The translations under genes were made by a program, and so were the position numbers. A stretch of DNA of 64,000 nt, from positions 21,208 to 85,207 of the IMG/VR virus record IMGVR_UViG_3300000439_000015. One strand, written 5' to 3'. The stretch comes from a virus. Lineage: Duplodnaviria > Caudoviricetes. The notes under the pieces were generated by a model, which saw nothing but the letters and a program-made list of their open reading frames with translations, was not told the DNA's origin and did no database searches. Every line of letters begins with the position of its first letter. Position 1 is the first letter of the stretch. Positions 34,337 to 50,038 of the stretch are shown here, in pieces.

Positions 34337-34816
34337 TTATTCGGCGTGAGTGTTGGCAAGCATGCCAGTGGCGGTATCAGCATTGAAGGAAGCGATTGCC
34401 GCCCTCTGAGCCAAAGCCTGAGCCGCTGGGTCTTTCTCGTATGACGCTTGTCCGCCCAATGGGGCGATGTGGTCGAGAATGGCCTCGTGAGCCTGCGCTG
34501 CATCGAGGTGGGCCTGAATCGCACGGGTCGCACGCATGCGGTCACCGTTAGACATTTCACTGCTGTGCTTCAGAACCATGTTCTTGATTCCTTCGGCGGT
34601 GGTGCGGTGAATCTGGGCGAGGGGCTTGGTCAGGCCATTGGAGATGCCGATGCCACGAGCGAAGTTCTGGGCGTTGGTGGAAAGGAAGTGCGAACTGCTC
34701 ACGGCCTTTTCCATGTCTGCACCCGACTGCCACTGGTTGCCGTGGAAAGCGTGGCCCTTGACATCACCCTTAGCCAACTGTACCCACGCAATGATTTCGT
34801 TGTTCAGATTGTCCAT
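34337..34816 (-). CDS. GHxFxGNQ-motif cargo protein (EIxxW leader), Ala/His-rich
   Basis: MDNLNNEIIAWVQLAK-GDVKGHAFHGNQW... Confidence 0.75.
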   Translation of the reverse strand: MDNLNNEIIAWVQLAKGDVKGHAFHGNQWQSGADMEKAVSSSHFLSTNAQNFARGIGISNGLTKPLAQIHRTTAEGIKNMVLKHSSEMSNGDRMRATRAIQAHLDAAQAHEAILDHIAPLGGQASYEKDPAAQALAQRAAIASFNADTATGMLANTHAE

Positions 34817-35352
34817 TAGATACCTTCCGAGAAACTTCCAACGCCAGCGGCTTGCTCGGCGCTACGGACGTTGTTTTCAGCAGCATCAACCTTATCTTGT
34901 GCGTCACTCATACGTTGTCCCGTGGCGTGGGCTGGGTCGGCGTTGGTGATTGTGTCACGGTTCGCCTCAAAGTTTTTGGTGTCACGGGCTGCACTTGCCA
35001 AACCAGCGTGGGCGTTGGCTGCGCTTTCGTGGGCGGTGGCAACATCACGGAGTTTTCCAGCCATTGAGCCAGTCGCCTTGTCTGCCATTGCGTGGTACAT
35101 CTGGGCTTGCTGATTGTGCGAAGCGCTTTGCTGCGTTGAGGTGGCTTCAGCGTTGCGACCTGCGTTCATCATGTCGTTTGCACCCCAGCGGCCTGGGTCT
35201 ACACGACGGGCTGGCTGTGCTGAAGCGCCAGTCGGGATGCCGCCAGTGTGCTGGTTCCCATTGAAGGCATGGCCTGCGGTTTCGTACTTCAAGATTTCAC
35301 CAACCTTGGCCCAGTTTGGGGCAAGTGCGTCTGTTGAGAAAGGGTTTGTCAT
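34816..35352 (-). CDS. GHxFxGNQ-motif cargo protein (FSTDAL leader)
   Basis: MTNPFSTDALAPNWAKVGEILK-YETAGHAFNGNQHTGG... Confidence 0.75.
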   Translation of the reverse strand: MTNPFSTDALAPNWAKVGEILKYETAGHAFNGNQHTGGIPTGASAQPARRVDPGRWGANDMMNAGRNAEATSTQQSASHNQQAQMYHAMADKATGSMAGKLRDVATAHESAANAHAGLASAARDTKNFEANRDTITNADPAHATGQRMSDAQDKVDAAENNVRSAEQAAGVGSFSEGI

Positions 35353-35356
35353 TTGA

Positions 35357-36292
35357 TTACATTCCTTCGTCTGCGCCCGTGGCACTACCTAGGCGTTCGG
35401 CAACCATGCTGGCACCTCGTGCAAGCATGGTGTTGTCACGGAGAATAGGACTTGTTGAGCCGCTTGCGTGTTGTTCGGCAACCCAGTTGTGAAGTTCTGC
35501 GGCGTGGTCGTGGGCGGCGATTGCCGACTTCAGAGCGCCCTGCTTCTCAGGGTTAGTCTCCTTGGCAAGGGCGTTTTTCAGCACTTGGCTGGCAATGCCG
35601 TGCTCGAAGGCTGCTGCACGGTGGGCGTTGGCGATTTGTGCGCCAGTACCACCGTGCTGAACAAGGTCACGAGCGTGCGAGGCAGCCATGAGAGCAGACC
35701 AGCCAGCGCCGTCCCGTCGTACATGGTCAAAGCCCTTGTCGAAGGGGTTTGAGGCGTACTGATTGCCGTGAAACTCGTGGCCCTTTACGTCGCCCTTCGT
35801 CACAAAAGACTTTTCAGCACCAGAGAGGATGACGTTGCCGTCGGTCACGCCTGCATTGCGACCAGACGTTGCCTTCATGGTTGCATCGGCGGCTTTCAGG
35901 GTGTTTTCAGCACTGGGGTTGTCGGCAGCGGCGTAGTGTGCGGCTGCTGCGGCTTCGTGCAACTTGGCGGCACCCTCTTCCATTGCGTATGAACGCCCGT
36001 TGGGGTTGTGGTAACTGGCGACAAGTTGACGCAAGCGCCCTGCCTCTTCGAGGTGCATACGAGCCATGCGGTCATGGGCCATGGTAGAAACGGTTGGCGA
36101 CTTTTTGCCTGCGCTCGCTGCCATCTGCGACGCTCGGTCACGAAGTGAGTTCAGAGCATCCCGTGTTTCACCAGTGGAACGAGCCGTGTATTGGTTCCCG
36201 TTGAAAGCATGGCCTGCCAACTCGTACTTCAGGATTTCACTGGCGGACTTCCAAACTGGAACCAGTGCGTCAGTAGAGAAGGGGTTTGTCAT
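35357..36292 (-). CDS. Two-unit GHxFxGNQ-motif cargo polyprotein
   Basis: MTNPFSTDALVPVWKSASEILK-YELAGHAFNGNQYT... plus internal FVTK-GDVKGHEFHGNQY. Confidence 0.75.
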   Translation of the reverse strand: MTNPFSTDALVPVWKSASEILKYELAGHAFNGNQYTARSTGETRDALNSLRDRASQMAASAGKKSPTVSTMAHDRMARMHLEEAGRLRQLVASYHNPNGRSYAMEEGAAKLHEAAAAAHYAAADNPSAENTLKAADATMKATSGRNAGVTDGNVILSGAEKSFVTKGDVKGHEFHGNQYASNPFDKGFDHVRRDGAGWSALMAASHARDLVQHGGTGAQIANAHRAAAFEHGIASQVLKNALAKETNPEKQGALKSAIAAHDHAAELHNWVAEQHASGSTSPILRDNTMLARGASMVAERLGSATGADEGM

Positions 36293-36302
36293 TATGTTTT
36301 CC

Positions 36303-36734
36303 TCACTTTGGCAGGTCAGCGTTGCCGTAGTGGTTTACCGCAGCCATTGTCTGGTTTACTGCCTTGGAAGCGTCTGTCGCTACGTTCTTGTTGCTGTAGT
36401 CCGCAACCTTGGCCCACGTCTTTTGAGCAGCGAGGTGCGCTTGGGCGAGGGCGTTCAGGTTGCCAGCAACGTCTTTGTAGCCAGTTTCGTTTCGTGCTGC
36501 CATTGCTTTGGCTGCTTCACCACGGTGGTACTCCGCCATGCCCAAAGCGTCTGCACGGTTTGGTGCACCGCCAATACGGTCACTGCCAACTTTGGCTGCT
36601 CGTCGCACAATGTTGTCCGTTCTGCCCGAAGTGAACTGGTTGCCGTGAAAGGGGTGACCATCAACGTCGCCTTTAGCCACGGGGTAGCGAGAGAGTGACT
36701 TGAGTAGTTCGTCGGTGTGGAAGCCAGATGACAC
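36303..36734 (-). CDS. GHxFxGNQ-motif cargo protein
   Basis: MSSGFHTDELLKSLSRYPVAK-GDVDGHPFHGNQFT... Confidence 0.75.
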   Translation of the reverse strand: MSSGFHTDELLKSLSRYPVAKGDVDGHPFHGNQFTSGRTDNIVRRAAKVGSDRIGGAPNRADALGMAEYHRGEAAKAMAARNETGYKDVAGNLNALAQAHLAAQKTWAKVADYSNKNVATDASKAVNQTMAAVNHYGNADLPK

Positions 36735-36916
36735 GAGGTTCTCCTTGTAGGGATTTCTACCTCAGATACTACGCCACGATTTCCTAAACCGATGTTCCAA
36801 AACCCCATTGACGGTGGTGATAAACGGTGCTAGACTTCGCCCGACTGACTTGGGGGCGCTGGACACAACGCCAAGTACATTCACACCGACCCCTGCCGAA
36901 AGGTGGGGGATTCGGT

Positions 36917-37414
36917 TTATTGGGGCCTGTTTGCGTCCCAAAGTGAGGTGAAATGGCCTCGCTCCGCTTCGCCAATGTGCTCCAAGAGCAGGTATCCATC
37001 GAGATGGTCTGTCTCGTGCTGAAAGATGCGAGCGAGCAATCCTTCCCCGTCAATCCTGTACTGGTTCCCGTCAAGGTCAAGGGCCGTCAAGGTCGCTTTG
37101 TACGAGCGGCTGATTTGCCACCCGAACTTGGGCACCGACAAGCATCCTTCGGGCGTGACCTCGATGTCAAGGGGGTCAGTGAAAACCTCTGGGTTGATGG
37201 CGACGTGAGCGCCCGTGCCGTCGCCGCTGTCCCAAACGAACATGCGGTGCGAGTAGCCGATTTGGTTGGCGGCAAGCCCAACACCGAGGTGAAAGTACAT
37301 GGCCTCAACCATCTCGGCGGCAATCATCTTGATGTTGTCTGTGATTTCACTGACCGAGGTCGTGGGGGCTTCCAAAATGGGGTCGCCATAGAAACGCAGG
37401 GCTGGGATGTTCAT
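36917..37414 (-). CDS. def: Peptide deformylase
   Basis: All three PDF motifs present: GVGLAANQIG, EGCLS, HETDHLDG. Confidence 0.95.
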   Translation of the reverse strand: MNIPALRFYGDPILEAPTTSVSEITDNIKMIAAEMVEAMYFHLGVGLAANQIGYSHRMFVWDSGDGTGAHVAINPEVFTDPLDIEVTPEGCLSVPKFGWQISRSYKATLTALDLDGNQYRIDGEGLLARIFQHETDHLDGYLLLEHIGEAERGHFTSLWDANRPQ

Positions 37415-37677
37415 CGTGCGCCCATCTCTCTCTTTGCCTCTTCGAGCAGTTCGGCGGTGAAGTCCTCTGGCGACAGTTCGGTCTTGGCGTGGGCCATCAA
37501 CTTGCCGCAAGCGATGCTGAACGCCCATGTGTACAGGCTGAGTTCCTCGTCGAGGTGCGTCAACTCCTTGCGGTAGCCGAGAACCATCTGGTCGTGCTTG
37601 GCAATCAGCCCTGCCGTCCCAGTGCGCATGGTAGCCAACTTCTCTTCGAGGTCGGCAATCTGCTCCGACTTACGCAC
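37411..37677 (-). CDS. Hypothetical coiled-coil protein
   Basis: 88 aa; overlaps neighbours by 4-8 nt. Confidence 0.6.
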   Translation of the reverse strand: MRKSEQIADLEEKLATMRTGTAGLIAKHDQMVLGYRKELTHLDEELSLYTWAFSIACGKLMAHAKTELSPEDFTAELLEEAKREMGAR

Positions 37678-37822
37678 GGTACTTCTCTGGCACTGGGCCT
37701 GTGTACGGAGCGCCGTTCAGGTCTGAGGTGAACGGGAAACGTGTCGAGCACTGCTGGCACATGACGTAGGTCTTAGCGCCTGCGTTCATCAGAATCCACT
37801 TGTGGAAGGCGCAACTAGCCAT
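37670..37822 (-). CDS. Small Cys/His (Zn-ribbon-like) protein, 50 aa
   Basis: MASCAFHKWILMNAGAKTYVMCQQCSTRFP...; below the track length cut-off; operonic overlaps. Confidence 0.5.
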   Translation of the reverse strand: MASCAFHKWILMNAGAKTYVMCQQCSTRFPFTSDLNGAPYTGPVPEKYRA

Positions 37823-37988
37823 GCTGAACCGTCATGACGTATTTGCTGGCGTTGGCGGTGAACGCCTGCGCCTCTTCCTTCGTGGCGAAGTCGGGCGATG
37901 TCATGACGGTGTAGTAGTAGCCATCACCACCTTGGTAGGTCTTGAAGAAGAACCCGTTGCCATTCCAAATCTCGACGACTTTACTCAT
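37815..37988 (-). CDS. Small hypothetical protein
   Basis: MSKVVEIWNGNGFFFKTYQGG...; TGATG coupling to the upstream gene. Confidence 0.5.
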   Translation of the reverse strand: MSKVVEIWNGNGFFFKTYQGGDGYYYTVMTSPDFATKEEAQAFTANASKYVMTVQHG

Positions 37989-38191
37989 CAAATAAACGCC
38001 TTCATGTCTTGCGCTTCTGCTTCCCATTGCTCTGGTGAACCGAGACGAACGACGTGCAAGCACACGTCCGTGCCGTTCTCCATGAGTTCTGATTCGGTGT
38101 CGGTCAACTCCACGCCTGCGTGGGTTTCGCACACCTGCTGGGTGCAGAACTTGTTGTCAATGCCGTACTGAAGCCACTCATCAAAGGTCAT
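37988..38191 (-). CDS. Small Cys/His hypothetical protein
   Basis: MTFDEWLQYGIDNKFCTQQVCETHAG...DVCLHVVRL. Confidence 0.6.
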   Translation of the reverse strand: MTFDEWLQYGIDNKFCTQQVCETHAGVELTDTESELMENGTDVCLHVVRLGSPEQWEAEAQDMKAFI

Positions 38192-38201
38192 GGCGTTCAC
38201 C

Positions 38202-38735
38202 TTAGCAGCCGTCGGCGTTCCATTCTGGGTGGATTCCGCCATTACGGTTCCAATAGAAGGCGGCGACACGGAACTGGTCTGCGATGCTCGCATCTTGGGC
38301 GTACTGGGCGGTGATGCCAAGGGCGTGAGCGCCGAACTGCCACGTTGGGGGCATGAACTGGAAGATGCCTGCTGCGCCTTCTGGGTTCACCTCACGGTAG
38401 TTGTGGAAGTCCGTGGGGGTCGAGCGAGATTCACGCCACATGACGCAGGTGAAGGCCGCTCGGCTCGGTGGTGGGAGCAAGTCCGTGTAGCCACCAGAGG
38501 GGGCTGTGTGGCTCGCTACGGGCTTTGGCTTGGCTTTGTGGTGAACCACAGGCTTGGCGACGTGAGCGTGCACCACGGGGCGGCTGTTGCCGTACCAGAA
38601 GATGGTAATCATCTTGGGCGTAGTCGTCCGAGCGGCGAGGTGATAGGCCACCTTGGGCGCAGCGTGGAACGTTCCTACGACAAGGGAGACTACGACTGTC
38701 AGTGCGAGGAAGCCACCTCGCACCGTGCCTAGCAC
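38202..38735 (-). CDS. Secreted Rpf-like/lysozyme-fold lytic transglycosylase
   Basis: Hydrophobic N-terminus, Pro/Lys/Val linker, then FTCVMWRES...GAAGIFQFMPPTW...ADQFRVA...HPEW; start codon uncertain. Confidence 0.8.
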   Translation of the reverse strand: MLGTVRGGFLALTVVVSLVVGTFHAAPKVAYHLAARTTTPKMITIFWYGNSRPVVHAHVAKPVVHHKAKPKPVASHTAPSGGYTDLLPPPSRAAFTCVMWRESRSTPTDFHNYREVNPEGAAGIFQFMPPTWQFGAHALGITAQYAQDASIADQFRVAAFYWNRNGGIHPEWNADGC

Positions 38736-38930
38736 GAGCCTGCCTTGGTAGAGGGATAGAACGGTACCGCTATTGGGTTGCTGGACACAACGCACTCCTT
38801 TGGTTGCCCATTGGGGGATGCACCAGTTTACCCGAATGTGACGGATAAGGCAAGTACTAAGCGATTTCCTTGCAAATAAAGGGTTTTGCCCACACCGTCG
38901 AGGTGATAGAAAAAAAACATGCAAAAAGAC

Positions 38931-38960
38931 TTGACAGATGTCACACGGGGGTGCCATACT
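38931..38960 (+). promoter_or_regulatory. Strong sigma70/SigA-type promoter (antisense to the cassette)
   Basis: TTGACA-gatgtcacacgggggtgc(18)-CATACT with TGn extension. Confidence 0.75.
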
Positions 38961-38966
38961 GGTTAG

Positions 38967-39294
38967 GTAAGAAAGCAGCAGTGCCGAGGTGCGCTTGTAA
39001 AGTCCCCACGAGAAAGTGGTCGAGCAAGCCGAAGGCCAGCCTGTGAGCCGTACCACCTGTTTGCGACACGGGCGCATTCAGTAAGGCCGTAGGGAGTTCG
39101 GAGCGAACTACGGCGAGGTGGGTACGGAACTCCTAGTGGGGGTGAGTGTTAGGCGTGAGGAAAAGCGCAAACCACCGAACCGCAAGGGGTAGGGTCGGGC
39201 GCTCGTTGGGAAACGGGTAGTCCGCCAGTGACATCAGTACGGAAAACCAAGGCTACCGAGTTAGAAGTCCCCTCAGCAAAGGCTGGGGGGATTT
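38967..39294 (+). ncRNA. Candidate structured non-coding RNA (~330 nt), family unassigned
   Basis: No credible ORF; bounded by promoter and terminator. Nested helices 38990-38996/39163-39169, 39004-39009/39136-39141, 39049-39058/39116-39126, 39086-39092/39108-39114. Confidence 0.65.
39267..39294 (+). terminator. Intrinsic terminator (possibly bidirectional)
   Basis: gtcccctcagc-aaag-gctgggggat-ttt; convergent with the stop of 39296-40885. Confidence 0.7.
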
Positions 39295-39295: not shown

Positions 39296-40885
39296 CTATT
39301 TGTAGACCTCGTTCAGCACTTGATAGTGGATTTGGCTTGCCTTGTCGTCGTCGCCTGCCTCGTGCGCCTCTTGCTCTTGGGCGAGCAGTTTGGCAGCCTT
39401 GTCGCTGAGGTGTTCTTCCTTGGGCTTCGTTGCCTTTTGGAACGGGAGCAGGGCGTACTTGGCCCAGATTTCGCCAGCGGTTTTGGAAACGTCGCCTTTT
39501 TGGACTGGGCTTTCCCAAACAACTGCGTCGGGGTTCCAGATTGAGTAGTTCGTGTGGTCTTTGGGCTGCGAAATGTCTTGTTGTGAAACTAGGGTCATCT
39601 TGCCATCTACGTTTGCGGTCTTTCCATCCTCTTCGTTGGTTAGGCCGCTTGTAAATAACTTCGCTCCATCTCTAAGTTTCCCACGGAGTACGGTTCCGCC
39701 CTCACCAGCGTAGGCACGAGCGACTTCTTCGCTATCGGTTGCGTAAACTGCTTTTCCGTCTAGACCGATTTCTTTCTTGCCGCTTAGGGTATCCGAGACT
39801 GCTTGCGAACTTCTTACGCCTCGATAAACGGTTACTCCACTTGCGTCAGTCGTTTCCCACTGATTTCCGTGAAAGACGTGGCCCTGAACGTCGCCCTTTT
39901 GGACGTGCCGCTCTACCATGGACTTCGCCCACGAGTAGCCAGCATCACCACCCCACGCATCCCACGCCACACGTCCGTGCGACGGGTATCCGTGTTCACC
40001 CTGACGGAAGCCTTCTGCCTTCTTGTCGGGCTGGTGACGGTCAAAATACGCCTTCATCCGCTTCAGAGTGTCCAGTGAAATCTGGTGCCCGTTACCGAGG
40101 TCTGACGCACGCTTGCGCCCGACGTTGGTGAACCCTGAGCCAGCCTTGCCGTCGGCAATCCATTCCAATGCTCGCTTAGCGGCCTCTTGTACCCCCTGCG
40201 GCGGAGTGAACGTATCCTTCTTCACCGCAAAGTGGGCAGCGAGGGTTTGGAACACGTCAATAAGGCGGTTCAAGTTGTCAATCATCTGGGCGTACTTGTC
40301 GTCCATGCCGAGTTGGTGAAACTCATCCTGTAGCGCCTCTAGACGGGGCCGTAAGCCTGCCAGCGTCTCCAAGGTCAGTCCTGCGTTCCAAAGGGCTGTG
40401 GCGACCTCTGGGGTGGCTTCACGGACACGAAAGTTGCAGAGAGCGTGGTCAATGCCGACTATTCCACCTTGGGCAAACATCAGGTTCTTGGGACGACGGT
40501 CTGCGTTGGCGGTGATGTAGTCGAACAGGCGTAGGTTTCTGCCTTGGTTATCGTTTGGGTAGCAGTCCTCGCTGCCGAGTTCCAATCCTGACTTGCCGTC
40601 AATGTACGGCATAATCACCATCTTGGCATCGGTTCCCACAAAGCGGCAGTCACGGACGGGGGCGTTCATCGCCTCTCCGACACGGGCGGCGAGATACTCC
40701 TGAGCGGCGAGTATTTCAGCACGGTACAAACGACCCGTCTTGTTGCCGTGCCAGTCCTTCATGTGCTTCTCGACCCCTTCGGAGCCATCAGCAAAGCGAA
40801 CACGGAACATTCCGTCGTTCTGGTTGCCCTTCACAAACATGGGTTCACGAGACACGATGTCCGTGCTGGTGAACGGCACGAACAT
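39296..40885 (-). CDS. Polyvalent cargo protein: HipA/PI3K-like kinase + conserved phage head-associated domain + GHxFxGNQ + ADP-ribosyltransferase-like domain
   Basis: EYLAARVGEAM...FDYITANADRRPKNL...GIDHAL (kinase); PPQGVQEAAKRALEW...AWDAWGGDAGYSWA; VQK-GDVQGHVFHGNQW; VYRG...GKAVYATDSEEVARAYA...YSIWNP (ART-like). Confidence 0.8.
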   Translation of the reverse strand: MFVPFTSTDIVSREPMFVKGNQNDGMFRVRFADGSEGVEKHMKDWHGNKTGRLYRAEILAAQEYLAARVGEAMNAPVRDCRFVGTDAKMVIMPYIDGKSGLELGSEDCYPNDNQGRNLRLFDYITANADRRPKNLMFAQGGIVGIDHALCNFRVREATPEVATALWNAGLTLETLAGLRPRLEALQDEFHQLGMDDKYAQMIDNLNRLIDVFQTLAAHFAVKKDTFTPPQGVQEAAKRALEWIADGKAGSGFTNVGRKRASDLGNGHQISLDTLKRMKAYFDRHQPDKKAEGFRQGEHGYPSHGRVAWDAWGGDAGYSWAKSMVERHVQKGDVQGHVFHGNQWETTDASGVTVYRGVRSSQAVSDTLSGKKEIGLDGKAVYATDSEEVARAYAGEGGTVLRGKLRDGAKLFTSGLTNEEDGKTANVDGKMTLVSQQDISQPKDHTNYSIWNPDAVVWESPVQKGDVSKTAGEIWAKYALLPFQKATKPKEEHLSDKAAKLLAQEQEAHEAGDDDKASQIHYQVLNEVYK

Positions 40886-41866
40886 TTAGAAACTCATTCC
40901 GTGACTTTGCCCGTAAGTAACTGCGCCCATTTGGAAACGGCTCATCATGTCGTTGTAATCGCTCGCACGACCCATCGAGGCGAATGTGTCTCTCAAACCA
41001 GACAGCGTGTTTGCCATGCCCATGATGTCGTTTCTGCTGGGGTTGCCAAGCAGTGAAAAGTTTGGCATGCCTGTCAAGCGACCCAACCTCGTGCCCACCG
41101 TGGCACCGTCGAAAGCCATGGCGTGGTCAATGCCGAGAATCGAACCGTCCTTTTGCACCCAGACGTTGCCTGGGTTCATGGCGTTTCGACCACCAAACAC
41201 GCCGTCGCCGTTGCCGATGAGTTCACCAAAGAAGCGCAACTGGTTCAAGCGATTGGCGTTGTCGGGGTTCAGACTGTGCAGGGCGCTGGGATTGTTTCCG
41301 CCATTCACACCGGCAATGTCGGCGGCAGGCTTGCCTTCAAGCCATGGTTGGACAATCTGGTTTTTGTTTCCAGCAACACCCTCGCAACAGCGGATGGGCA
41401 TGCCGAGGGCTTCGCCAACCTTAGATGACAAGATTTCGTTCTGCGCTTGGCGTGAGGCGGTCAAACCCTGAGCAGGGAACGGCTTGAAGTTCTTGATGGC
41501 TCCGACAGAACCGTCCTTCATCTCGACCTTTTGAAAGCCTTTGTTCATTGCTCCGCCCATGCGCATTACACCACCTAACGGCTTGTTGATTTCCGAAGTG
41601 TTCAACCCTACCGCTTTGCCCGTTGTCTTTAGGGGCGGCGCTGGCTTAGATGGTGCGGCGGCTGGTGCGGCGGCACGCCCAGCGGTTGGTCGGGGCGCAC
41701 GGCCCACCCGTGGAATGGCTGGCTGAACAACACGAACTGCACGTCCACCGCCGTTTCCACCTGCACCGCCTCGGAAGTTGCCGTTCTCGTCAAGCCATTG
41801 GTTACCGTTGAACTTGTGGCCTGGCAACTCGTATTTCAGTACACGGAGAATCTGACGGAAGTCCAT
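40886..41866 (-). CDS. GHxFxGNQ-motif cargo protein with HipA/PI3K-like kinase domain
   Basis: MDFRQILRVLK-YELPGHKFNGNQW...NEILSSKVGEALGMP...MNPGNVWVQKDGSILGIDHAMAF. Confidence 0.75.
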   Translation of the reverse strand: MDFRQILRVLKYELPGHKFNGNQWLDENGNFRGGAGGNGGGRAVRVVQPAIPRVGRAPRPTAGRAAAPAAAPSKPAPPLKTTGKAVGLNTSEINKPLGGVMRMGGAMNKGFQKVEMKDGSVGAIKNFKPFPAQGLTASRQAQNEILSSKVGEALGMPIRCCEGVAGNKNQIVQPWLEGKPAADIAGVNGGNNPSALHSLNPDNANRLNQLRFFGELIGNGDGVFGGRNAMNPGNVWVQKDGSILGIDHAMAFDGATVGTRLGRLTGMPNFSLLGNPSRNDIMGMANTLSGLRDTFASMGRASDYNDMMSRFQMGAVTYGQSHGMSF

Positions 41867-42113: not shown

Positions 42114-42512
42114 TTAGACAGTTGGAGTTGAGGCAGTCTGAACGTAGTTCTGCCCACCTACGCCCCACTGCTGATACTGCGAAGGCTTGTCGCTACTGGG
42201 ATTTGGAAGAACCTTCTGTCCAGCAACGAGTGACCAACGGTTGTCAATCGGGCGAGAGCAGGTGGAACAGGTGCGTGACTGCGAAGAGGCAGCGAACTGA
42301 CCCGTGATGGAGCCGTCGGCGTTGCGCTCAATCCAAGTGTCGGGAACCTTGATGGTATTGGAATGCCCCGACGCACACGTTGCAGTGAAAAGCAGGTTCT
42401 TAGCGTCAAAGGCGTTCAGTCCGCCCGTTGAGTGCTGGTTGCCACGAAAGACGTGGCCCTTCAAGTCGCCCTTTGTAATGGGGTACAAGAGTGCGTCGGT
42501 GCTGAAGTCCAT
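42114..42512 (-). CDS. GHxFxGNQ-motif cargo protein with Zn-ribbon-like motif
   Basis: MDFSTDALLYPITK-GDLKGHVFRGNQHS...CASGH...CSTC. Confidence 0.75.
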   Translation of the reverse strand: MDFSTDALLYPITKGDLKGHVFRGNQHSTGGLNAFDAKNLLFTATCASGHSNTIKVPDTWIERNADGSITGQFAASSQSRTCSTCSRPIDNRWSLVAGQKVLPNPSSDKPSQYQQWGVGGQNYVQTASTPTV

Positions 42513-42513: not shown

Positions 42514-43233
42514 CTACGAGTTTACCGTAGGGTTTGCGAGTATCCCGATTTCGCACATGCAGTCGGGGTGAAATGGCGGCAGGTCTGCGTCGCTTGTGAC
42601 GGGCAGTCCGTCTTGAGCCTGACACTCTGGGCAAGCGCCATCAGCAGCGATGATTTGCATCTGAGCGCCGTTGGCTTGGAGTGTGTTCCTTACGCCGAGG
42701 TTGAATCCACGGTTCGCCTCTGTGTTGGCAATCATCATGGCTCGATGTTCGGCGGCTATTTCAGCAACCACTGCCGCCATAATCGCCGCTTTGCCCAACT
42801 TGTTCTTCATGCCGTTGGTGATGGCACCTGCGGCTAAGAGCATGGTTGTGTCGCCAATCCCTGACGCAATCTTGGCGGCTATGGGATTCATTTCACCAGA
42901 TGCGGCTCGTGCGGCGAGCATTGTTCCAATACCGAGGGCAAGGAGTGCGCCTGCGTGCTTCTCGGCGGCTTGCTGAACGTCTTGGTACATACCGCCGATG
43001 GTTGATGTCACAGGGGTGTTGTTTACTTGTAGGGCGGATGCTGGGTCGCCGCCGTTCTGGGCGAGCGCAATGGCTGCTGATACGCCGACAATGCTCTCTG
43101 CGAGGGCCTTCTTGACTTTGGCCTTGTGCTTCTTGGATGCCGCTACGACGGCTGGGTTGCCCTTTTCCTTTGTGGCGGTTTTGCCCTTGGCAAACTCAAT
43201 CCACTCTAGGATTTCACTGTCCGTGATGGACAT
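42514..43233 (-). CDS. MuF-like (phage Mu gpF / SPP1 gp7) head morphogenesis protein, short form
   Basis: RAMMIANTEANRGFNLG...ACPECQAQDG...LPPFHPDCMCEI; N-terminal MSITDSEILEWIEFAKG leader. Confidence 0.85.
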   Translation of the reverse strand: MSITDSEILEWIEFAKGKTATKEKGNPAVVAASKKHKAKVKKALAESIVGVSAAIALAQNGGDPASALQVNNTPVTSTIGGMYQDVQQAAEKHAGALLALGIGTMLAARAASGEMNPIAAKIASGIGDTTMLLAAGAITNGMKNKLGKAAIMAAVVAEIAAEHRAMMIANTEANRGFNLGVRNTLQANGAQMQIIAADGACPECQAQDGLPVTSDADLPPFHPDCMCEIGILANPTVNS

Positions 43234-43235: not shown

Positions 43236-44069
43236 CTACTCCGCAGAAGGCTTGGAGTAAGTTCCGCCCCGACGCTTGTATTCCTGAACAACCCAGCCAT
43301 TAGCAACTGCTGAAGGGTAGACATCAAACTTCTTTTGTGCGTCTGCCTTGACTTGGTTGTAGAGGTCTTGGTCGTCTGGCTCGCCCTTGCGGTCAGAAAT
43401 CAACTTCGTGTAATCAGGCTCGTCGTCTGCCTTAGAAATCGGAACCCCAGCGGCGACTTGCGAGGCGGCTGAAGCCGTGCTTGCGTTTGCGGCTATGTTG
43501 GTTCGGTTTCCCGAACGGGCGAAATCCCCTGCTTGCTTTGAGGCACTATCATGCGCCAACGCTGCTTGGAAATGAAGTTGGCTTACCAATCCGTTTGTTT
43601 TATCCGCCAAATCAAAGTGCGCCCTTGCAAGTTCAGCGTGTTTACCGGCTATGTCTTGCAAGTTGTGTACTTTATTGGGGTCTGCGTCAGGCGTATTTTG
43701 GACTTTTGACGCAAAGTTAGCAAGGTCTTTTGCTTTGGAAGCAACGTCTTTGGCTTGTTCGTAATCTTCTTGGTTGGCGTACTGGTTTCCCCGAAATGGG
43801 TGACCTGAAAAGTCGCCCTTAGCGATTTCACCAGAAGCGTGTCCCGTAGGCGCACCCGTAGCGTCAATGTGACGTAGTTGGCAGAACCCTTCGGGGTTGT
43901 CAATGTGCTTTCCAGCAATCGCTACGCAAGCGGCAAAGTCGCCTTCGCCGCCCCAGTTGATTTGACCATCGGCACCGTTGTTGTACCAGTCAATCAAGCC
44001 CTGAGCGTTGCCTGCTTTGTGGATTTCCACCTCACGGGCATACTTGACCCAAGAAAGAATGTCAGACAC
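43236..44069 (-). CDS. Three-unit cargo polyprotein (phage head-associated domain + GHxFxGNQ Ala/His unit + DUF5872-like domain)
   Basis: IHK-AGNAQGLIDWY...WGGEGDFAACV...FCQLRH; IAK-GDFSGHPFRGNQY; ISK-ADD...LYNQVKADAQKKFDVYPSAVANGWVVQEYKRRGGTY. Confidence 0.75.
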   Translation of the reverse strand: MSDILSWVKYAREVEIHKAGNAQGLIDWYNNGADGQINWGGEGDFAACVAIAGKHIDNPEGFCQLRHIDATGAPTGHASGEIAKGDFSGHPFRGNQYANQEDYEQAKDVASKAKDLANFASKVQNTPDADPNKVHNLQDIAGKHAELARAHFDLADKTNGLVSQLHFQAALAHDSASKQAGDFARSGNRTNIAANASTASAASQVAAGVPISKADDEPDYTKLISDRKGEPDDQDLYNQVKADAQKKFDVYPSAVANGWVVQEYKRRGGTYSKPSAE

Positions 44070-44092: not shown

Positions 44093-44452
44093 TTACTTCT
44101 GTAAGCCAAAGTGGTTAGTGTACTTTTCAGCAAAGTCACTTTGCGTTTGAGCGATACTGTCGCCCTTTTCCCAAGCGTCTCTAGCAGCAGCGTGTGCTGA
44201 AGCGGCTTTGTAGGCAATGTTTGACCCCGTAATGTCGCCACGCTTATCAGCCTTGCGAGCCTCTACAACCAAGCGGTTGATTTCGCTCTGGTGATACTGC
44301 GCCTTTGGGTTGGAATAGCGTGTCTTAGCCTCGCCAAATCCAGCGGCTTCGGTGTACTGATTTCCATGGAAAGCGTGTCCAGCCACATCACCCTTAGCGA
44401 CGTGGTAGATACCTTGTCCTGCGAGCAGGGCTTCGGTACTGAAATCAGTCAC
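44093..44452 (-). CDS. GHxFxGNQ-motif cargo protein
   Basis: MTDFSTEALLAGQGIYHVAK-GDVAGHAFHGNQYT... Confidence 0.75.
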   Translation of the reverse strand: MTDFSTEALLAGQGIYHVAKGDVAGHAFHGNQYTEAAGFGEAKTRYSNPKAQYHQSEINRLVVEARKADKRGDITGSNIAYKAASAHAAARDAWEKGDSIAQTQSDFAEKYTNHFGLQK

Positions 44453-44454: not shown

Positions 44455-45858
44455 TTACCGCCCAGCGGCAGCAGCGGTGTCGGCAGCGTAAGCAGCGTCA
44501 TTCAAGCGAACAACCTCGCCCTCAGCCTGAGCCTTTTCACCGTTGTACAATGAACGGGCCTTGTCAGAGAACTCGGCAACCTTGGACTGCGATGCGTCAC
44601 GGGAGCCACGGTCAGTTTCCTTCTGAAAGGTGTTCTGAATGCCCTTCAGAGCGCCGTGAGCCTTCTGAAAGTGACCAGCGGCTTCTTCGTGCTTGGCAGC
44701 AGCATCGTGCAACTTTCCAGCGGCTTCAAGAGCCTTGGCCTCGGCTACGGCCTTGCGTCCGTTGGCGAGGTGGGTGTCGTGAGCGCCCTGATAACGAGAA
44801 ACGGTCTGCTTCCAGCCTTCACGCTTGCCAGCCATTTCACCACGACTAAAGGTACGCATACCGCCGGTGTGCTGGTTGCCCTCGAAGGGGTGGCCTGGCT
44901 GGGCACCTGAGCGGCCCTTGACACCGTACTTCTCAACCGAGAAGATGTACTCCTGATAGCCAACGGACTTTTGGAACGGGCGGGTCAGCAACTCGTCGGT
45001 TCCGAAGCGGTTAGAGGCGCTAGGCGTGTATGCCTTCTCAATGCCAATCATGTCGTGACCATCACAGGTGGGGCAGCCCTCGTTGGCGTCGAAGCCGAGG
45101 CAGTCGGGGCAGAGAATAACGTCGTACTGAGCATCAAAGTCGGCGTTGGTCTGATTGGCACCCATGGGAGCGCCGAGGTCGGCTGCGTAGGTGTAACCAT
45201 TGGAATCGGTGGGCATGGAAGCGTCCTTTCGGAGAACTGACTTGTTGGTGGGCACTGCGGTGGAAAGCGAAGGTTCCGCCTGCCATGAATCGGGCAAAGC
45301 GTCGGTAGCGCCGAGAGCCTTAGCCTGAGTAATGATGTGCGCCTTGACCGCCTTGGGGTCAGAAGCACGCCCGTAAGACTGAACAGCGTTTTCAAGGTCA
45401 GCACGGGTTTCGATTGGGTACGAACCGTCAGGCATGGCCTTGCCCTTCGAGGCAAGTTCCTGACGCTTGTCGTCCGAGAAGTCACGCTTCAAGATTTCAC
45501 CGTTAGAGGCGGCACGGATGCCAGCAAGGGCGCTCTTAGCAAGGTTCAGTGCTTCAGAAGCGGCCTGTGCAGCCTTGTCAGCGTCACGGTACTCGGCAAT
45601 GGCGTTGTTGTATCCAGTGCGCAGTTGTTCTTTGTTCCAAACCGACTTGGTGATGCTCTCACGGTAGGCAAGTTCGGCAACACGAAGCGTCTCCGTCGCC
45701 TTAGCGAGGCGGAAGTCAGCGTTGTCCTTTTCACCACGAGCGGCAGTCTCGGCAAGAGCCATCTTGCCAATCTGCGACTTGGCAATCTCGGTGGTGTTGT
45801 TGGTCACCGACTGGGAAAAGGAGACAGTCTTTGGTGTGTTGCTAGGAACCTGAATCAT
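44455..45858 (-). CDS. Multi-unit cargo polyprotein (coiled coil + DUF6582-like + CxxC Zn finger + GHxFxGNQ unit)
   Basis: ILK-RDFSDDKRQELASKGKAMPDGSYPI...LPDSW; CPDC...CPTC; internal RFGTDELL...VEK-YGVKGRSGAQPGHPFEGNQHTGG. Confidence 0.75.
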   Translation of the reverse strand: MIQVPSNTPKTVSFSQSVTNNTTEIAKSQIGKMALAETAARGEKDNADFRLAKATETLRVAELAYRESITKSVWNKEQLRTGYNNAIAEYRDADKAAQAASEALNLAKSALAGIRAASNGEILKRDFSDDKRQELASKGKAMPDGSYPIETRADLENAVQSYGRASDPKAVKAHIITQAKALGATDALPDSWQAEPSLSTAVPTNKSVLRKDASMPTDSNGYTYAADLGAPMGANQTNADFDAQYDVILCPDCLGFDANEGCPTCDGHDMIGIEKAYTPSASNRFGTDELLTRPFQKSVGYQEYIFSVEKYGVKGRSGAQPGHPFEGNQHTGGMRTFSRGEMAGKREGWKQTVSRYQGAHDTHLANGRKAVAEAKALEAAGKLHDAAAKHEEAAGHFQKAHGALKGIQNTFQKETDRGSRDASQSKVAEFSDKARSLYNGEKAQAEGEVVRLNDAAYAADTAAAAGR

Positions 45859-45887
45859 AAGTTGATTACCTTTCGCTTCTGGTGAAA

Positions 45888-45909
45888 ATGCTACACCGAG
45901 ATTTGGAAA
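45888..45909 (-). promoter_or_regulatory. Late-type promoter motif
   Basis: Minus strand TTTCCAAAT-ctcggtg-TAGCAT. Confidence 0.6.
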
Positions 45910-45916
45910 ACCTCGG

Positions 45917-46921
45917 TTACTCTTCGCCGTCGGGGTAGGCGATGGCGTACAGAGGGTGGTTAGGCAACAGGTAGCCCTCAGGGGTGGTGTCAGGCTCACC
46001 CTCGAAGTCGTCCTCAGTTGACATGTCCAGCGGCGTGACGGCTGGGTAGTCAGCGTCGGGGTCGCTGTCGCTGTAGTCGGGGCCAGAGTAATCGTGCGAC
46101 GTGTAGTCGTTCATCATCTCTTCAGGGGCAGCCTTAGCGATGCCACCGTTCATTCCAGCAGCCAGAGCAGCCTGACGCAGGTAAGCGTGGGCGGTCTGGT
46201 AAGCGTCGCATGCCATCAGCGCCATCTGCATAGCGGTGGTGGTGTCGCCGTTCTGGTAAGCCTGAGCCGACTGCATCTTGTAGTTGTCACCAGCATCAGC
46301 AGCCTTCTCAGCGGCAATCACGAGGTCGTCCAAGTTGGAATCGCTTGACGATGGGGTGGAATCACTCGACGAGGACGATGAGGAACTGCTGCTCGACGAC
46401 GAAGAGGACGAACTGTCGTCATCACCACTGCCGTCAAACATGAAGCCAGCGTCCTTCTGCATTGAGGCGACGTGCATGGCGTGGTTGTTTGCCTCGACGT
46501 AGTTCTTGTTGCCAGCGTGGGCATCAGCAATAATCTTGGCACTGTTGGCCTGAGCCTCGGCAATGTGCTTAGCCGATTCCGAACGCTCTTCGGCGGTCTT
46601 GGTGGAATCGTTGGCGTGAATCGAAGCGTCATGGGCGGCGTGCATCGGGCCACTGCGGTGGGCATCGGCAGCAAGCGAGTGCAGTTCCGAGGCACGGTTG
46701 TGGGCATCAGCAGCGCCAAGGAAGAAGGAAGCGGCACGGGTGTCGCCAGTTGCGCCTGCGGCGTTGGTCATTGCATCAGCAACGTCGGCGTGCATGGCAG
46801 CGAGGTCGTCGTGATTGGAAGCCTCGGCCTCGTGGTCAACGGTGTCAACCTTGAAGGGTTCGGTGACGGCAGCAGCCTTGGTGAGCCACTGGGCGATTTC
46901 GTTGTTGATGTTGTCTGACAT
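45917..46921 (-). CDS. EIxxW-leader Ala/His-rich acidic protein with poly-Ser linker
   Basis: MSDNINNEIAQWLTK-AA...HDDLAAMH...AADAHNRASELH...poly-S. Confidence 0.7.
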   Translation of the reverse strand: MSDNINNEIAQWLTKAAAVTEPFKVDTVDHEAEASNHDDLAAMHADVADAMTNAAGATGDTRAASFFLGAADAHNRASELHSLAADAHRSGPMHAAHDASIHANDSTKTAEERSESAKHIAEAQANSAKIIADAHAGNKNYVEANNHAMHVASMQKDAGFMFDGSGDDDSSSSSSSSSSSSSSSSSDSTPSSSDSNLDDLVIAAEKAADAGDNYKMQSAQAYQNGDTTTAMQMALMACDAYQTAHAYLRQAALAAGMNGGIAKAAPEEMMNDYTSHDYSGPDYSDSDPDADYPAVTPLDMSTEDDFEGEPDTTPEGYLLPNHPLYAIAYPDGEE

Positions 46922-46931
46922 GGTGGAATCC

Positions 46932-47393
46932 TTATCCTTGGAGTGAGACGGACAACTGCCACGCCCACTTGTTGTGATTGTCAATGCGGTCTGCGAGGAA
47001 GTTTGCGATTCCCTGCTGATTTGCTTGTGTTGCTAAGGCAAATGCCTTATTCAGGCTTGTGAGAACACCTGCGTTTGTTTCGGCAAGAGAGGCTACCAAC
47101 TTCTCGTGGTGATAGCCACTCACTGCGTCGTCCGATACAGAAGCCATGCGAGCCAAGTCCGTCAAGCGGAACGGAGCGAACATGCCCAACTTGCGCAGGT
47201 TCTCAGCCATTGGGTCGAGGGATTCATACACGTCCGTGTAGATTTCCTCGAACTTGGCGTGATACTGGGGGAAGTCGGTGCCGACTACGTTCCAGTGAAA
47301 TCCGTGAGTTCGGTGGTACATCACGGTTGCGTCGGCAAGACAAGTGGCGAGGGCCACCGTCAAGTCTTGCGTCGCATCCTTAGTGATGTCCAT
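46932..47393 (-). CDS. dps: Dps / DNA-binding ferritin-like protein
   Basis: YHRTHGFHWNVVGTDFPQYHAKFEEIY...DPMAENLRKLG...IANFLADRIDNHNKWAWQL. Confidence 0.93.
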   Translation of the reverse strand: MDITKDATQDLTVALATCLADATVMYHRTHGFHWNVVGTDFPQYHAKFEEIYTDVYESLDPMAENLRKLGMFAPFRLTDLARMASVSDDAVSGYHHEKLVASLAETNAGVLTSLNKAFALATQANQQGIANFLADRIDNHNKWAWQLSVSLQG

Positions 47394-47404
47394 GGTGAAC
47401 TACC

Positions 47405-48025
47405 TTACGCAACGTTTGGCGTAGCGATTTGGTTGTTAGCGGCCCCAGAAACACCTGAGAGGGCGTTCGACATGCGTGCGGCCTGAAGTCCGTTGTTGAG
47501 GGTAGATACGGCGGTAGCGGCACGGCTGGCACTGGCGTGCAGTTCGGCGGCATCGCCAGCGGCCTTCATGATTGCACGAGGTGATGCGCCGGTGGCACGC
47601 AACTTCGACAGAACACGCAGGGCGTGACCGGCACGTCCAGCCTCATCACCAGCGTGGTGGGCGGCGTATTCGAGGGTCTTAGCCTGCTGGTGTATTGAGC
47701 GGTCATTGCGGTTCTTGCCGTCGCTGAACTTCGTCTGGGCGGCCTTACCAGCGTGGTAAGCGGCCTCGTTGAAGTGGTAGCGAGCAAGGCTGTGGTTGCC
47801 GTTGGTGTGTGCAGCCAAGGCAGCAGCGAGGTGGGAGTTGGCTGCGTTCAGGTGGTCGTTGCGTCCGTAGTTCTTTTCACCACGAGGATTGTGCGCCATG
47901 GCGTTCTGAATGCCGCCAGTGTTGCCGTTTCCACGGAAAGGGTGACCCATCTCCGGCCCAGAGCCTCGCCCGCCCTTTTCAAGAGTAAGGAGCCATTCTT
48001 GAATGGCGTTGGTGTTGTCGGTCAT
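47405..48025 (-). CDS. GH-motif cargo protein, Ala/His-rich
   Basis: MTDNTNAIQEWLLTLEK-GGRGSGPEMGHPFRGNGNTGG... Confidence 0.7.
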   Translation of the reverse strand: MTDNTNAIQEWLLTLEKGGRGSGPEMGHPFRGNGNTGGIQNAMAHNPRGEKNYGRNDHLNAANSHLAAALAAHTNGNHSLARYHFNEAAYHAGKAAQTKFSDGKNRNDRSIHQQAKTLEYAAHHAGDEAGRAGHALRVLSKLRATGASPRAIMKAAGDAAELHASASRAATAVSTLNNGLQAARMSNALSGVSGAANNQIATPNVA

Positions 48026-48060
48026 GTGCGTTGCCTTTCTAAGCGGAACGTTCTGGTGAA

Positions 48061-48082
48061 ATGCTACCCCTAGATTTAGAAA
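48061..48082 (-). promoter_or_regulatory. Late-type promoter motif
   Basis: Minus strand TTTCTAAAT-ctagggg-TAGCAT. Confidence 0.6.
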
Positions 48083-48102
48083 TCTATGGTTTAGGAACTG
48101 CT

Positions 48103-48582
48103 TTACCCTGCGAGCGCCCGTGCGGTTCTTTCATCCGCCAACTGCGACCTCGTGACCGCAATGACACTGGCTCCGTTGGCGTAATCACCAGCGGTAATAC
48201 GGTTTTCGTGGTTCTTTGCGGTGGTCAGGTGTACTCCGGCAGCGCCTTCGTGTGCTGTTGCTGCTTCTTCTAGAAGTTTTGCCTTTTCCGGTTTGGCAGT
48301 GGTGGCTAGTTCCCGTAGCGCCTTCGCTTGTTCGGCGTGCTGGGCAGAGAGTTCACGGTGCCCCTGTGCACTTGGGTTTTTAGCAAGTTCCTGCGCCCGT
48401 GGAGCAAGCGAGCCGAAGCGACCCGACACTTGGTAGCGGTCTGAGGGTGCTGATGAGCCTGCGCCCTCAGCGTCCGTGTGTTGGTTCCCATGGAAAAGGT
48501 GACCGAAGAAGTCCTTTTCCAATGCTTCCTCGGCCTTGGCAAACTGCACCCATTGCAGGATTTCACTGTCGAGGTTTGACAC
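48103..48582 (-). CDS. GHxFxGNQ-motif cargo protein (EIxxW leader), Ala/His-rich
   Basis: MSNLDSEILQWVQFAK-AEEALEK-DFFGHLFHGNQHT... Confidence 0.75.
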   Translation of the reverse strand: MSNLDSEILQWVQFAKAEEALEKDFFGHLFHGNQHTDAEGAGSSAPSDRYQVSGRFGSLAPRAQELAKNPSAQGHRELSAQHAEQAKALRELATTAKPEKAKLLEEAATAHEGAAGVHLTTAKNHENRITAGDYANGASVIAVTRSQLADERTARALAG

Positions 48583-48590
48583 GATAACCC

Positions 48591-49034
48591 TTAGTTACCG
48601 AACGGTACGTTGACGTACATGCCAGCACGGTATGCGGCATCGCCAATGTCCTCAGCGTGGATGCCCTCTTCTTGACCCTTGATGGTCGTGGTGCCAGAAC
48701 GTGTGTAGGTGCGCTGAACGGTGTAGGTGTCGTTGGGGTGGAGAAGAACGTTTACGCCGTAGCCACGGCTGACGGGAAGGTTCACTCCGACGGTGCGACC
48801 ACCCGAATCACGGAGCGTGTTGACACGTCCGCCAGAGATGCCCAAGATGTTCATTCTACCAATCTGACCAACGGTCTGATTAGCGTCCATCTCACGGAAG
48901 CCGTCGAAGTGAGCGCCAGAGTTTCCGCCCGTGTACTGATTTCCGTTGAAGGCGTGTCCAGCCAACTCGTACTTCGTGACGGCGTAGATTCCCTGACCTT
49001 CAAGCAATGATTCGATGGTGAAAGGATTGTTCAT
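48591..49034 (-). CDS. GHxFxGNQ-motif cargo protein with beta-rich payload
   Basis: MNNPFTIESLLEGQGIYAVTK-YELAGHAFNGNQYTGG...QIGRMNILGISGGR...VNVLLHPNDTYTVQR. Confidence 0.75.
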   Translation of the reverse strand: MNNPFTIESLLEGQGIYAVTKYELAGHAFNGNQYTGGNSGAHFDGFREMDANQTVGQIGRMNILGISGGRVNTLRDSGGRTVGVNLPVSRGYGVNVLLHPNDTYTVQRTYTRSGTTTIKGQEEGIHAEDIGDAAYRAGMYVNVPFGN

Positions 49035-50038
49035 TAGTTTCCGTTCGCCCGTCCGCCCAAGCCCATGGGGTTGTTGGATGCCATAGCAGCAACGTGTGAC
49101 AACGCCTCGGCTTGGTCAAGTTGCGCCGTCTTGTCGGCTGCGGCGTAGGGGGTCTTGCCATCAGCAATGTCTTGGTACGCCTTAGCAGCAGCGAAGTGGC
49201 TTGCGGCGGCGAGTTGAGCACCACGGATGCCATCCTTCACCATCTGACTGTCTTGGTGTCCGCCAGCCTGAGCCTGACGAACCATCTCATTCAGTTCGTT
49301 GCCAAGTTGAGCGTGGCGGTCTGCCATCAGCCTGTAGTTGTCCTGAACGGGGGCGCTATTGCGAATACGGGTGGCGAGTTGGGCCGTCGCCAAGGCACGA
49401 GCGGCGTGGGAGTACTGGTTCCCATGAAACTCGTGGCCCATGACATCGCCCTTGGCAACAGACTTCTTGCCCTTGCAGTCGGGGCAAGTAACGTTTCCAC
49501 CACGAATGGTTCCCTTACCCTTGCAAAGTTTGCAGTCGGCAGCCTTGTTCACCTCATTAGCGGCAGCGGCAGCGTCATGGAAGTCCGCAGCCTTCTGCGC
49601 CATCTTCCATTCAGTTGAGGCAGGTAGAACGACGTTCCTACCGCCACGGCCCTGACCGATGTAGGTGGTCTTGCCGTAGGTGTGCGACTGCGCCTCACGG
49701 TAAGCATCAGCAGCACGGTAGTGTTCGCCCGAACGGGCAAGTTCGTCCGCTTTCAGTGCGGCGAGGGCGGCTGGGCTTTGGATGTGAGCGCCGACGGGAA
49801 CTTCCTTCTGACCGAGGATGCGAGTGGTCAGGGGGCTATTGCCCTTCATTCCACCTTTTACCCACGCTTCGTGGCTCTGGTTGCGAGGCGGGCCTCCGCC
49901 TGCAACCGCCGCACCGCCACGGGATGCTCCCGATGCGCTCGTGTACTGGTTTCCATTGAACGCATGACCTTCAGTCTCATACTTGGCAACCACTGCCTTT
50001 TCAAGCCACGAGGTGATTTCATCGTTGATGTCGGTCAT
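49034..50038 (-). CDS. Two-unit GHxFxGNQ cargo polyprotein with DnaJ-type Zn finger
   Basis: MTDINDEITSWLEK-AVVAK-YETEGHAFNGNQYT; CKLCKGKG...CPDCKGK; VAK-GDVMGHEFHGNQYS. Confidence 0.75.
   Translation of the reverse strand: MTDINDEITSWLEKAVVAKYETEGHAFNGNQYTSASGASRGGAAVAGGGPPRNQSHEAWVKGGMKGNSPLTTRILGQKEVPVGAHIQSPAALAALKADELARSGEHYRAADAYREAQSHTYGKTTYIGQGRGGRNVVLPASTEWKMAQKAADFHDAAAAANEVNKAADCKLCKGKGTIRGGNVTCPDCKGKKSVAKGDVMGHEFHGNQYSHAARALATAQLATRIRNSAPVQDNYRLMADRHAQLGNELNEMVRQAQAGGHQDSQMVKDGIRGAQLAAASHFAAAKAYQDIADGKTPYAAADKTAQLDQAEALSHVAAMASNNPMGLGGRANGN

Follow-up and report, generated by a model that had tools for sequence, protein, structure and literature searches.

In bacteriophage T4, an N-terminal propeptide of 10–20 residues, the capsid targeting sequence (CTS; Mullaney and Black 1996), is the only conserved part of diverse internal proteins. 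It guides these proteins to the scaffolding core, the prohead protease cleaves it off, and it can bring foreign proteins into heads as well (PMC3012670, PMC5694885). The modules of polyvalent proteins are thought to be delivered along with the DNA (PMC5512222). Here we describe short N-terminal leaders on proteins encoded in the head gene block of a phage of the Caudoviricetes (IMG/VR record IMGVR_UViG_3300000439_000015). The stretch analyzed, "the window," is the right-hand 64 kb of its 85,207-bp single-contig genome, in which nearly all genes are on the minus strand. By analogy with T4, we give about even chances to the reading that these leaders are N-terminal capsid-targeting propeptides, removed at a junction motif with the core G-D-x-x-G-H-x-F-x-G-N-Q (the GH motif). 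Targeting propeptides are already known; we found no description in the literature of several unrelated leader types coexisting in one genome, of leader exchange between orthologues, of leaders coupled to a long junction motif that also punctuates polyproteins, or of the spread of such a leader/junction system in uncultured phages.

Leader peptides of the head block

The main leader types in our proposal are A, E-I-x-x-W-h-x-h-A-K, and B, F-(S/T)-T-(D/E)-x-L-L, the latter with different spacers. In a six-frame translation of the 85-kb genome, the leader-A pattern matches six times and the leader-B pattern eight times; all matches are in the coding frame, and 13 of the 14 are no more than 10 residues away from a start codon. 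After codon-block shuffling, the mean number of matches is 0.44 (A) and 0.13 (B). By gene counts from a crude call of open reading frames, leaders occur in 15 of the ~26 genes from the protease gene to the scaffold-like gene, compared with one of ~92 elsewhere in the genome (Fisher p = 3e-11).

Leader copies within the genome are only 33%–82% identical in DNA, with the same conserved residues encoded by different codons (TCA, TCT, AGC, and AGT for Ser; CTT, CTG, CTA, CTC, and TTG for Leu). Since the copies have diverged and differ at synonymous sites, it is the peptide itself that is under selection, not the DNA. The synonymous divergence also rules out recent gene conversion between leaders.

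An earlier note on this DNA had listed 13 leaders of two kinds, and all 13 are present on the minus strand in the frame of their genes, 12 at residues 2–10 and the remaining one internal. The positions that it assigned to them identify the right genes but are the low (stop) ends; the leaders lie at the high ends. Ribosome-binding sites and gene packing correct two start codons, to 46921 (not 46984) and 35352 (not 35385), and with likely starts all leaders begin 2–10 residues past the initiator, except the internal copy at 44917–45009. Two kinds of leader proved too few: Leader B comprises at least four spacing types, and there are further types, MDFRxIxxILK, MIPSLxxLD, and, in other phages, PSRAARLLLLAA..LGD. 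Three leader genes had also been missed: one with the form MDFRQILRVLK, the start of a 529-aa protein, and one gene outside the window. The statement that either A or B can be combined with either K-G-D or K-Y-E holds, all four combinations being present.

The leaders of type A are as follows, all on the minus strand, with coordinates that run from the start codon through the Lys. MTDINDEITSWLEKAVVAK (49982–50038) begins a 334-aa protein and is followed by YETEGHAFNGNQY; VSNLDSEILQWVQFAKAEEALEK (48514–48582), followed by DFFGHLFHGNQH, begins the 159-aa protein of the 48103 gene; MTDNTNAIQEWLLTLEK (47975–48025), on the 206-aa protein of the 47405 gene, precedes a long junction form, GGRGSGPEMGHPFRGNG; and MDNLNNEIIAWVQLAK (34769–34816), on the 159-aa protein encoded at 34337–34816, precedes GDVKGHAFHGNQW. 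There is no GH motif behind MSDNINNEIAQWLTK (46877–46921, the corrected start of the 45917 gene) or behind MSITDSEILEWIEFAK (43186–43233) on a MuF-like protein. A leader-A-like start, VSDILSWVKYAREVEIHK (44016–44069), opens a DUF5872 protein whose first GH motif lies ~90 residues downstream. The MuF-like protein (42514–43233) matches Phage_Mu_F (PF04233) at profile positions 6–110 of 112 with 20.3 bits, below the cut-off of 29.6, and has a C-terminal HPxCxC; a search of a large protein database with it returned itself as the sole match.

Leader B, also on the minus strand, occurs with a GQGIY spacer in MNNPFTIESLLEGQGIYAVTK (48972–49034; 147-aa protein, 48591), followed by YELAGHAFNGNQY, and in VTDFSTEALLAGQGIYHVAK (44393–44452; 119-aa protein at 44093–44452), followed by GDVAGHAFHGNQY. 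An LLYP type, MDFSTDALLYPITK (42471–42512), precedes GDLKGHVFRGNQH, and a KSLSxYPV type, VSSGFHTDELLKSLSRYPVAK (36672–36734; 36303 gene), precedes GDVDGHPFHGNQF. The PxW..EILK type is found twice, as MTNPFSTDALVPVWKSASEILK (36227–36292), again followed by YELAGHAFNGNQY, and as MTNPFSTDALAPNWAKVGEILK (35287–35352, with the corrected start). On the 529-aa protein, the leader-B-like start MFVPFTSTDIVSREPMFVK (MFVPFTSTDIV..FVK; 40829–40885) is followed by a decayed GNQ motif; relatives have F-Q-P-N-F-V-T-F-T-N-T-x-I-V and then G-x-F-K-G-N-Q. The short leader MDFRQILRVLK (41834–41866), followed by YELPGHKFNGNQW in the K-Y-E form, is on a kinase-like protein.

The internal leader-B-like copy that had been reported in the 44455 gene before its GH motif is indeed there, at 44917–45009 (minus strand), as RFGTDELLTRPFQKS...GVK followed by GRSGAQPGHPFEGNQH. 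It is internal in all six relatives of this 467-aa protein (44455–45858), and a Met stands just upstream in four of the six, suggesting either that two genes fused long ago or that translation can start internally. Over its first two thirds, the protein looks like a scaffold, with a long coiled-coil-like stretch, a conserved block (A-M-P-D-G-S-Y-P-I...K-A-H-I-I-T-Q-A-K-A-L-G), and a C-x-x-C...C-x-x-C knuckle.

Across 126 viral contigs and this genome, 113 unique N-terminal contexts sort into recurring leader types. Type A reads (D/N)-L-(D/N)-S-E-I-x-x-W-(V/I/L)-x-h-A-K, and four types of B can be told apart: B1, G-F-(S/T)-T-x-E-L-L-Y-P-(L/I)-T-K; B2, N-P-F-x-x-(D/E)-x-L-L-K-S-x-S-x-Y-P-V-x-K; B3, N-P-F-S-T-x-x-L-x-P-x-W-x5-E-I-L-K; and B4, ...L-L-x-G-Q-G-I-Y-x-V-x-K. 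The short form is M-D-F-R-x-I-x-x-I-L-K, and there are further minor types. In a gap-free alignment of ten diverse class-A starts, E, W, A-K-G-D, and G-H-x-F-x-G-N-Q are invariant.

Natural leader exchanges

That leaders are interchangeable, as had been claimed, is borne out by natural swaps on the bodies of the 34337, 48591, and MuF proteins. The body of the 159-aa protein at 34337–34816 carries leader A here and in L002, and MTNPFSTDALAPNWAKVGEI-AKGD... (type B3) in L003, L004, L005, and P0001. The latter is the leader of the neighboring gene, at 35287–35352 here; in the DNA alignment, the crossover falls at the codons just before the Lys, and the neighbor's own body is missing. In the 36303 orthologues of L002 and L003, the leader is kept and K-Y-E replaces K-G-D.

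Database searching yields 30 relatives of the alpha/beta domain in the 147-aa protein (48591); 20 of them (P0012–P0031, 91–180 aa, from other sources) are without leader or motif. Inside the system, the same domain family has leader A (P0003, P0006, and P0010), B4 (P0002), B3 (P0004), a B1-like leader (P0009), or a stub (P0007). The MuF protein has leader A here and in L006 and L007, and B1, as SGFSTAELLYPLTK, in the L069 homologue, with a GH motif in none of them. Further body clusters mix leaders B1/B2, B2/B3, B3/B4, and B1/B4-like.

The junction motif

The earlier note had treated leader and GH motif as separate elements, and the data agree: There are leaders without the motif, and internal motifs mostly lack a leader. 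Leaders without a GH motif are found on MuF, the 45917 family (P0050, P0089, and P0094), the DUF5872 family, several leader-B proteins, and zinc-ribbon proteins, in which K-G-D is followed by C-P-L-C. Nothing leader-like precedes 155 of the 162 unique internal motifs, and the other seven follow a leader-B-like stretch; two leader-A matches among internal motifs are genuine N-termini behind long open upstream frames. Positions −7 to +12 are alike at N-terminal and internal sites, reading h-x-K-G-D-h-x-G-H-x-F-(H/R)-G-N-Q-(Y/W)-T-x-G. Positions −24 to −8 have an information content of 0.4–1.2 bits at N-terminal sites (all types pooled), compared with 0.1–0.4 bits at 132 internal sites. The window has 16 copies of H-x-F-x-G-N-Q, all on the minus strand between 34753 and 49966, and there is one more elsewhere in the genome.

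When the C-termini of free-standing genes were compared with the 75 residues that precede internal motifs, the stop codon fell, at the most frequent offset, exactly on the junction Lys. The 529-aa and DUF5872 families stop at this position, and relatives read on into G-D/E..GH: ...QVLNEVYK-stop here and in L003 and L007 compares with ...QVLNEVYK-GEAAGH in L029, and ...TYSKPSAE-stop and ...TYHKPAKA-stop with ...TYHKPVTK-GDVAGH. Compared with that of L007, the DUF5872 gene here has a motif plus helical body inserted between ...GEIAK and ADDEPDY. The stops at Lys, this insertion, and the crossover in the 34337 swap together place the functional boundary between Lys and Gly. If a cut falls at this boundary, GDxxGHxFxGNQ would, from its sequence position, become the new N-terminus. 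In other contigs, the motif follows immediately on a C-terminal sequence recognized by eye as XkdF-like. A literature search under several spellings found no description of the junction motif, and a paper on polyvalent proteins (PMC5512222) mentions neither the motif nor N-terminal leaders.

Distribution among uncultured phages

We scanned IMG/VR with a degenerate DNA pattern for K-G-D-x-x-G-H-x-F-x-G-N-Q and found at least 119 stretches, with up to 10 copies per locus. Bacterial and archaeal genomes, 596 Gb in all, contain only two stretches with the same pattern, each on a contig of a metagenome-assembled genome. A profile of leader A plus motif retrieves 1033 protein clusters at E ≤ 0.001 among 1.84 billion representatives; the motif-bearing proteins are up to 3461 residues long and have up to nine motif copies. 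In 126 loci and this genome we counted 368 motifs. One further leader type of other phages, a hydrophobic and basic stretch (..P-S-R-A-A-R-L-L-L-L-A-A..G-T-L-R-x-L) followed by G-D-x-x-GH, is found in P0045, P0071, P0078, P0119, P0120, P0145, P0147, and P0180.

Among cultured phages, a tblastn search with the 119-aa leader-B protein (44093–44452) gave only chance-level matches, to Vibrio phage tail genes (E 0.1–2). Actinomycetia phage DSL-LC01 has the middle domain of the 529-aa protein, with no GH motif in the 40 kb read, and Arthrobacter phage Ottawa has capsid and protease in common with this phage and neither motif nor leaders.

Two proteins of other loci may be mentioned here. In the distant relative L007 (4181–4915), leader A and K-G-D-GH precede a protein of 244 aa that weakly matches RelA/SpoT (20.1 bits; cut-off 27) and is a possible alarmone-synthetase-like cargo. 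In the IMG/VR locus L086, the polyprotein around the MuF domain combines K-G-D-V-E-GHPFRGNQW with a second junction, KGGPGSGNFGHEGRPGE.GGSG, which is present twice. The long form of the 47405 gene, KGG(P/E/Q)GSGxxxGHPFxGN(Q/G), looks like a bridge between the two junction motif types.

Structure prediction

In AlphaFold2 models of two cargo proteins, leader and motif have a pLDDT of 33–56 and the bodies 80–97. For the 147-aa protein (29-sequence alignment), residues 1–40 score 46–56, with a four-residue helix at 7–10, and the body 90–97. Residues 1–46 of the 206-aa leader-A protein score below 50 and have no secondary structure; its body, a four-helix bundle, scores mostly 80–97. The low pLDDT outside the folded body suggests that leader and motif form a flexible extension.

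Genome setting

The head genes are transcribed in the order portal, protease fusion, ~18 kb of mostly unannotated genes, scaffold-like, cement-like, and major capsid; the portal, protease fusion, scaffold-like, and major capsid genes are on the minus strand. The portal protein (52168–53802) is of the Mu type (PF06074, 116.8 bits). Just upstream of the leader-bearing block, a 552-aa protein (50343–52001) has a C-terminal XkdF-type serine protease domain (Peptidase_S78_2/XkdF, PF14550; 46.8 bits, cut-off 24; residues 413–531), and its homologues are annotated as capsid maturation protease; it is the candidate processing enzyme. A 271-aa protein (31556–32371) is taken as scaffold-like, and as a candidate docking partner, from its position upstream of the cement and major capsid genes; it has no family match above cut-off. 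The cement-like protein between these genes has a weak Phage_cement_2 match (21.6 bits; Pfam cut-off 24), and the major capsid protein (29810–30796) is 48%–52% identical to those of Arthrobacter phages. A PHROGs search gave no match for most of the cargo bodies.

The protease fusion protein has a stretch S-x-V-H-V-D-(G/x)...K-K-K-x-K immediately before its protease domain, which recurs near the N-termini of large motif proteins (L061, L096, L102, L110, P0041, and P0157) and may be a further conserved element for handling or self-cleavage. This protein (51200–51450) and the leader-A protein 45917–46921 (46300–46400) contain long poly-serine tracts; that of the protease fusion is longer in its L007 orthologue. 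Several small genes, with start codons at 57444, 57777, 61622, and 62548 (minus strand), have a near-identical upstream string, ACTGA(C/T)-n-AGGAG-n6-7-ATG, by which one class of genes may be marked for translation or regulation. Two small Cys-rich proteins (53792–54163 and 60664–60960) are WhiB-like by eye, which points to an actinobacterial host.

Discussion

From the position of their genes between protease and scaffold, we infer that the cargo proteins are located inside the head. In the propeptide reading, every cargo protein of the head module that is translated separately would start with a leader of 11–23 residues, of one of several types, that docks it on an inner part of the procapsid during assembly; scaffold, protease fusion protein, portal, and MuF are candidates for this part. 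The leader would end in the non-prime half of the junction, h-x-K/G-D-h-x-G-H-x-F-(H/R)-G-N-Q-(Y/W)-T-x-G (cut at the slash), where the XkdF-type prohead protease would both remove leaders and split multi-module proteins into their modules. Internal junctions would have no leader because, as we propose, an address is needed at the first module of a polypeptide and nowhere else. Such a pattern is one that an address calls for and a cleavage site does not. A stronger version, in which the leader types form an address code that sends cargo to different procapsid places or loading steps (e.g., near the portal with MuF, the scaffold, or the shell), seems to us very doubtful.

Several observations weigh against the leaders as targeting propeptides. 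The leader patterns were written after the data had been seen, and the contig set was gathered with the KGD..GHxFxGNQ pattern, so that only positions outside it are free evidence. One leader-B gene (genome positions 2915–3310) sits amid replication and recombination genes, among AAA-ATPase and RecA-like genes. The rule does not hold for every gene of the block, since the Dps/ferritin-like (46932–47393), peptide deformylase (36917–37414), and 38202–39077 genes have neither leader nor motif. One member of the 48591 family, P0011, apparently starts directly at G-H, and some N-terminal motifs, mostly on very large proteins, are preceded only by a stub of 5–10 residues. In the P-S-R-A-A-R-L-L-L-L-A-A phage group, Leu or Ala rather than Lys precedes G-D, which suggests that a fixed Lys-specific cut is not general. 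The earlier note had the leader as a helix; AlphaFold2 gives no confident helix in the two cargo proteins, and the hydrophobic moment at 100 degrees exceeds that of shuffles (p < 0.05) in only three of seven A and two of six B copies. As a matter of modeling, the AlphaFold2 result speaks neither for nor against a helix formed on binding.

The leaders could be caps rather than addresses, the working element being the G-D-x-x-G-H-x-F-x-G-N-Q end, exposed by a protease that needs residues upstream, and the leader types being merely passed around the lineage. A cap would fit three observations: N-terminal and internal sites do not differ in their junction core (h-x-K-G-D...GNQ-Y/W), the motif can be preceded by a very short stub like MRNLAK or MDYSITK, and the same body is served by leaders of very different sequence. 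We nevertheless regard this as unlikely: A spacer should not keep E, I, and W, or F, T, D/E, L, and L, across distant phages while the DNA drifts, and leaders are also present where there is no GH motif to be exposed (MuF, the 45917 family, and several leader-B proteins).

By analogy with the cargo-loading peptides of encapsulins, leader and motif could also remain uncut, as a permanent N-terminal tag for the inner capsid wall, portal, or DNA, with internal motifs as flexible binding linkers. Both are predicted to be disordered, as binding peptides are, and the up to nine motif repeats in one protein would allow multivalent binding. This too is quite unlikely in our estimate, because genes fuse and split exactly at K/G, with stops at the junction Lys, as expected if both forms yield the same end products, and because in some phages a protease domain (XkdF-like, by eye) is fused directly ahead of the motif; known encapsulin tags, moreover, are C-terminal. 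It seems highly improbable that the leaders are leftovers of duplication in a paralogous head protein family, with no role of their own. Several bodies do have a common His/Ala-rich helical pattern, and the neighboring genes 34816 and 35357 are clear duplicates. However, leaders stand on bodies as unrelated as MuF, kinase-like and zinc-ribbon proteins, an alpha/beta domain, and a four-helix bundle; the 48591 family, leader-less in other phages, gained A, B1, B3, or B4 inside the system; and it is the peptide that is conserved while synonymous sites change.

Should the leaders prove to be targeting propeptides, they would offer a simple and portable way to load proteins of choice into heads of a large group of uncultured phages of actinobacteria and other hosts, as the CTS does in T4, and they would mark, from sequence alone, genes whose proteins enter the host with the DNA, most of these being of no known family. 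The natural swaps show how such sets of cargo are remodeled, through recombination at a single short junction. An address code, if true, would set what leaves the head first and would be part of a widespread, undescribed phage cargo system, with >1000 clusters at 50% identity that have the junction motif and almost none in prophages.

Comparison with known systems

Like the cargo-loading peptides of encapsulins, the leaders are short tags, predicted to be disordered, that would address unrelated cargo to the inside of an HK97-fold shell. Encapsulin tags are located at the C-terminus, are not removed, and bind the shell protein directly.

The inner-head and ejection proteins of the giant phages phiKZ, 201phi2-1, and SPN3US resemble the proteins described here in having conserved N-termini despite diverged bodies, and the prohead protease processes them at a short motif (PMC5694885, PMC10052503). 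Their propeptides are mostly >100 residues long with the cleavage motif A/S/G-x-E (PMC5694885, PMC10052503), whereas the leaders here have 11–23 residues; leader classes or swaps between orthologues are not described for them. As in the polyvalent and MuF-linked effectors (Iyer et al. 2017, PMC5512222), many unrelated enzyme-like modules are strung together or lie side by side near MuF in the head block; for polyvalent proteins, processing by embedded metallopeptidase domains has been proposed (PMC5512222).

The closest likeness is to the T4 CTS of internal proteins and Alt: In both, a short, movable N-terminal peptide stands on otherwise unrelated, fast-changing bodies, directly before a conserved junction or processing site. 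Here, the same leader types are found on MuF, kinase-like, zinc-ribbon, alpha/beta, and helical bodies. For the CTS, both cleavage and targeting have been proven, whereas the present leaders are known from sequence. The T4 site, L/I-x-E, is cut by gp21 (as described in PMC5694885), compared with K-G-D or K-Y-E within a 19-residue junction and a candidate XkdF-type protease in the present phage. Unlike the T4 CTS, the leaders fall into several unrelated types in one genome, and the junction that follows them also divides multi-module proteins.

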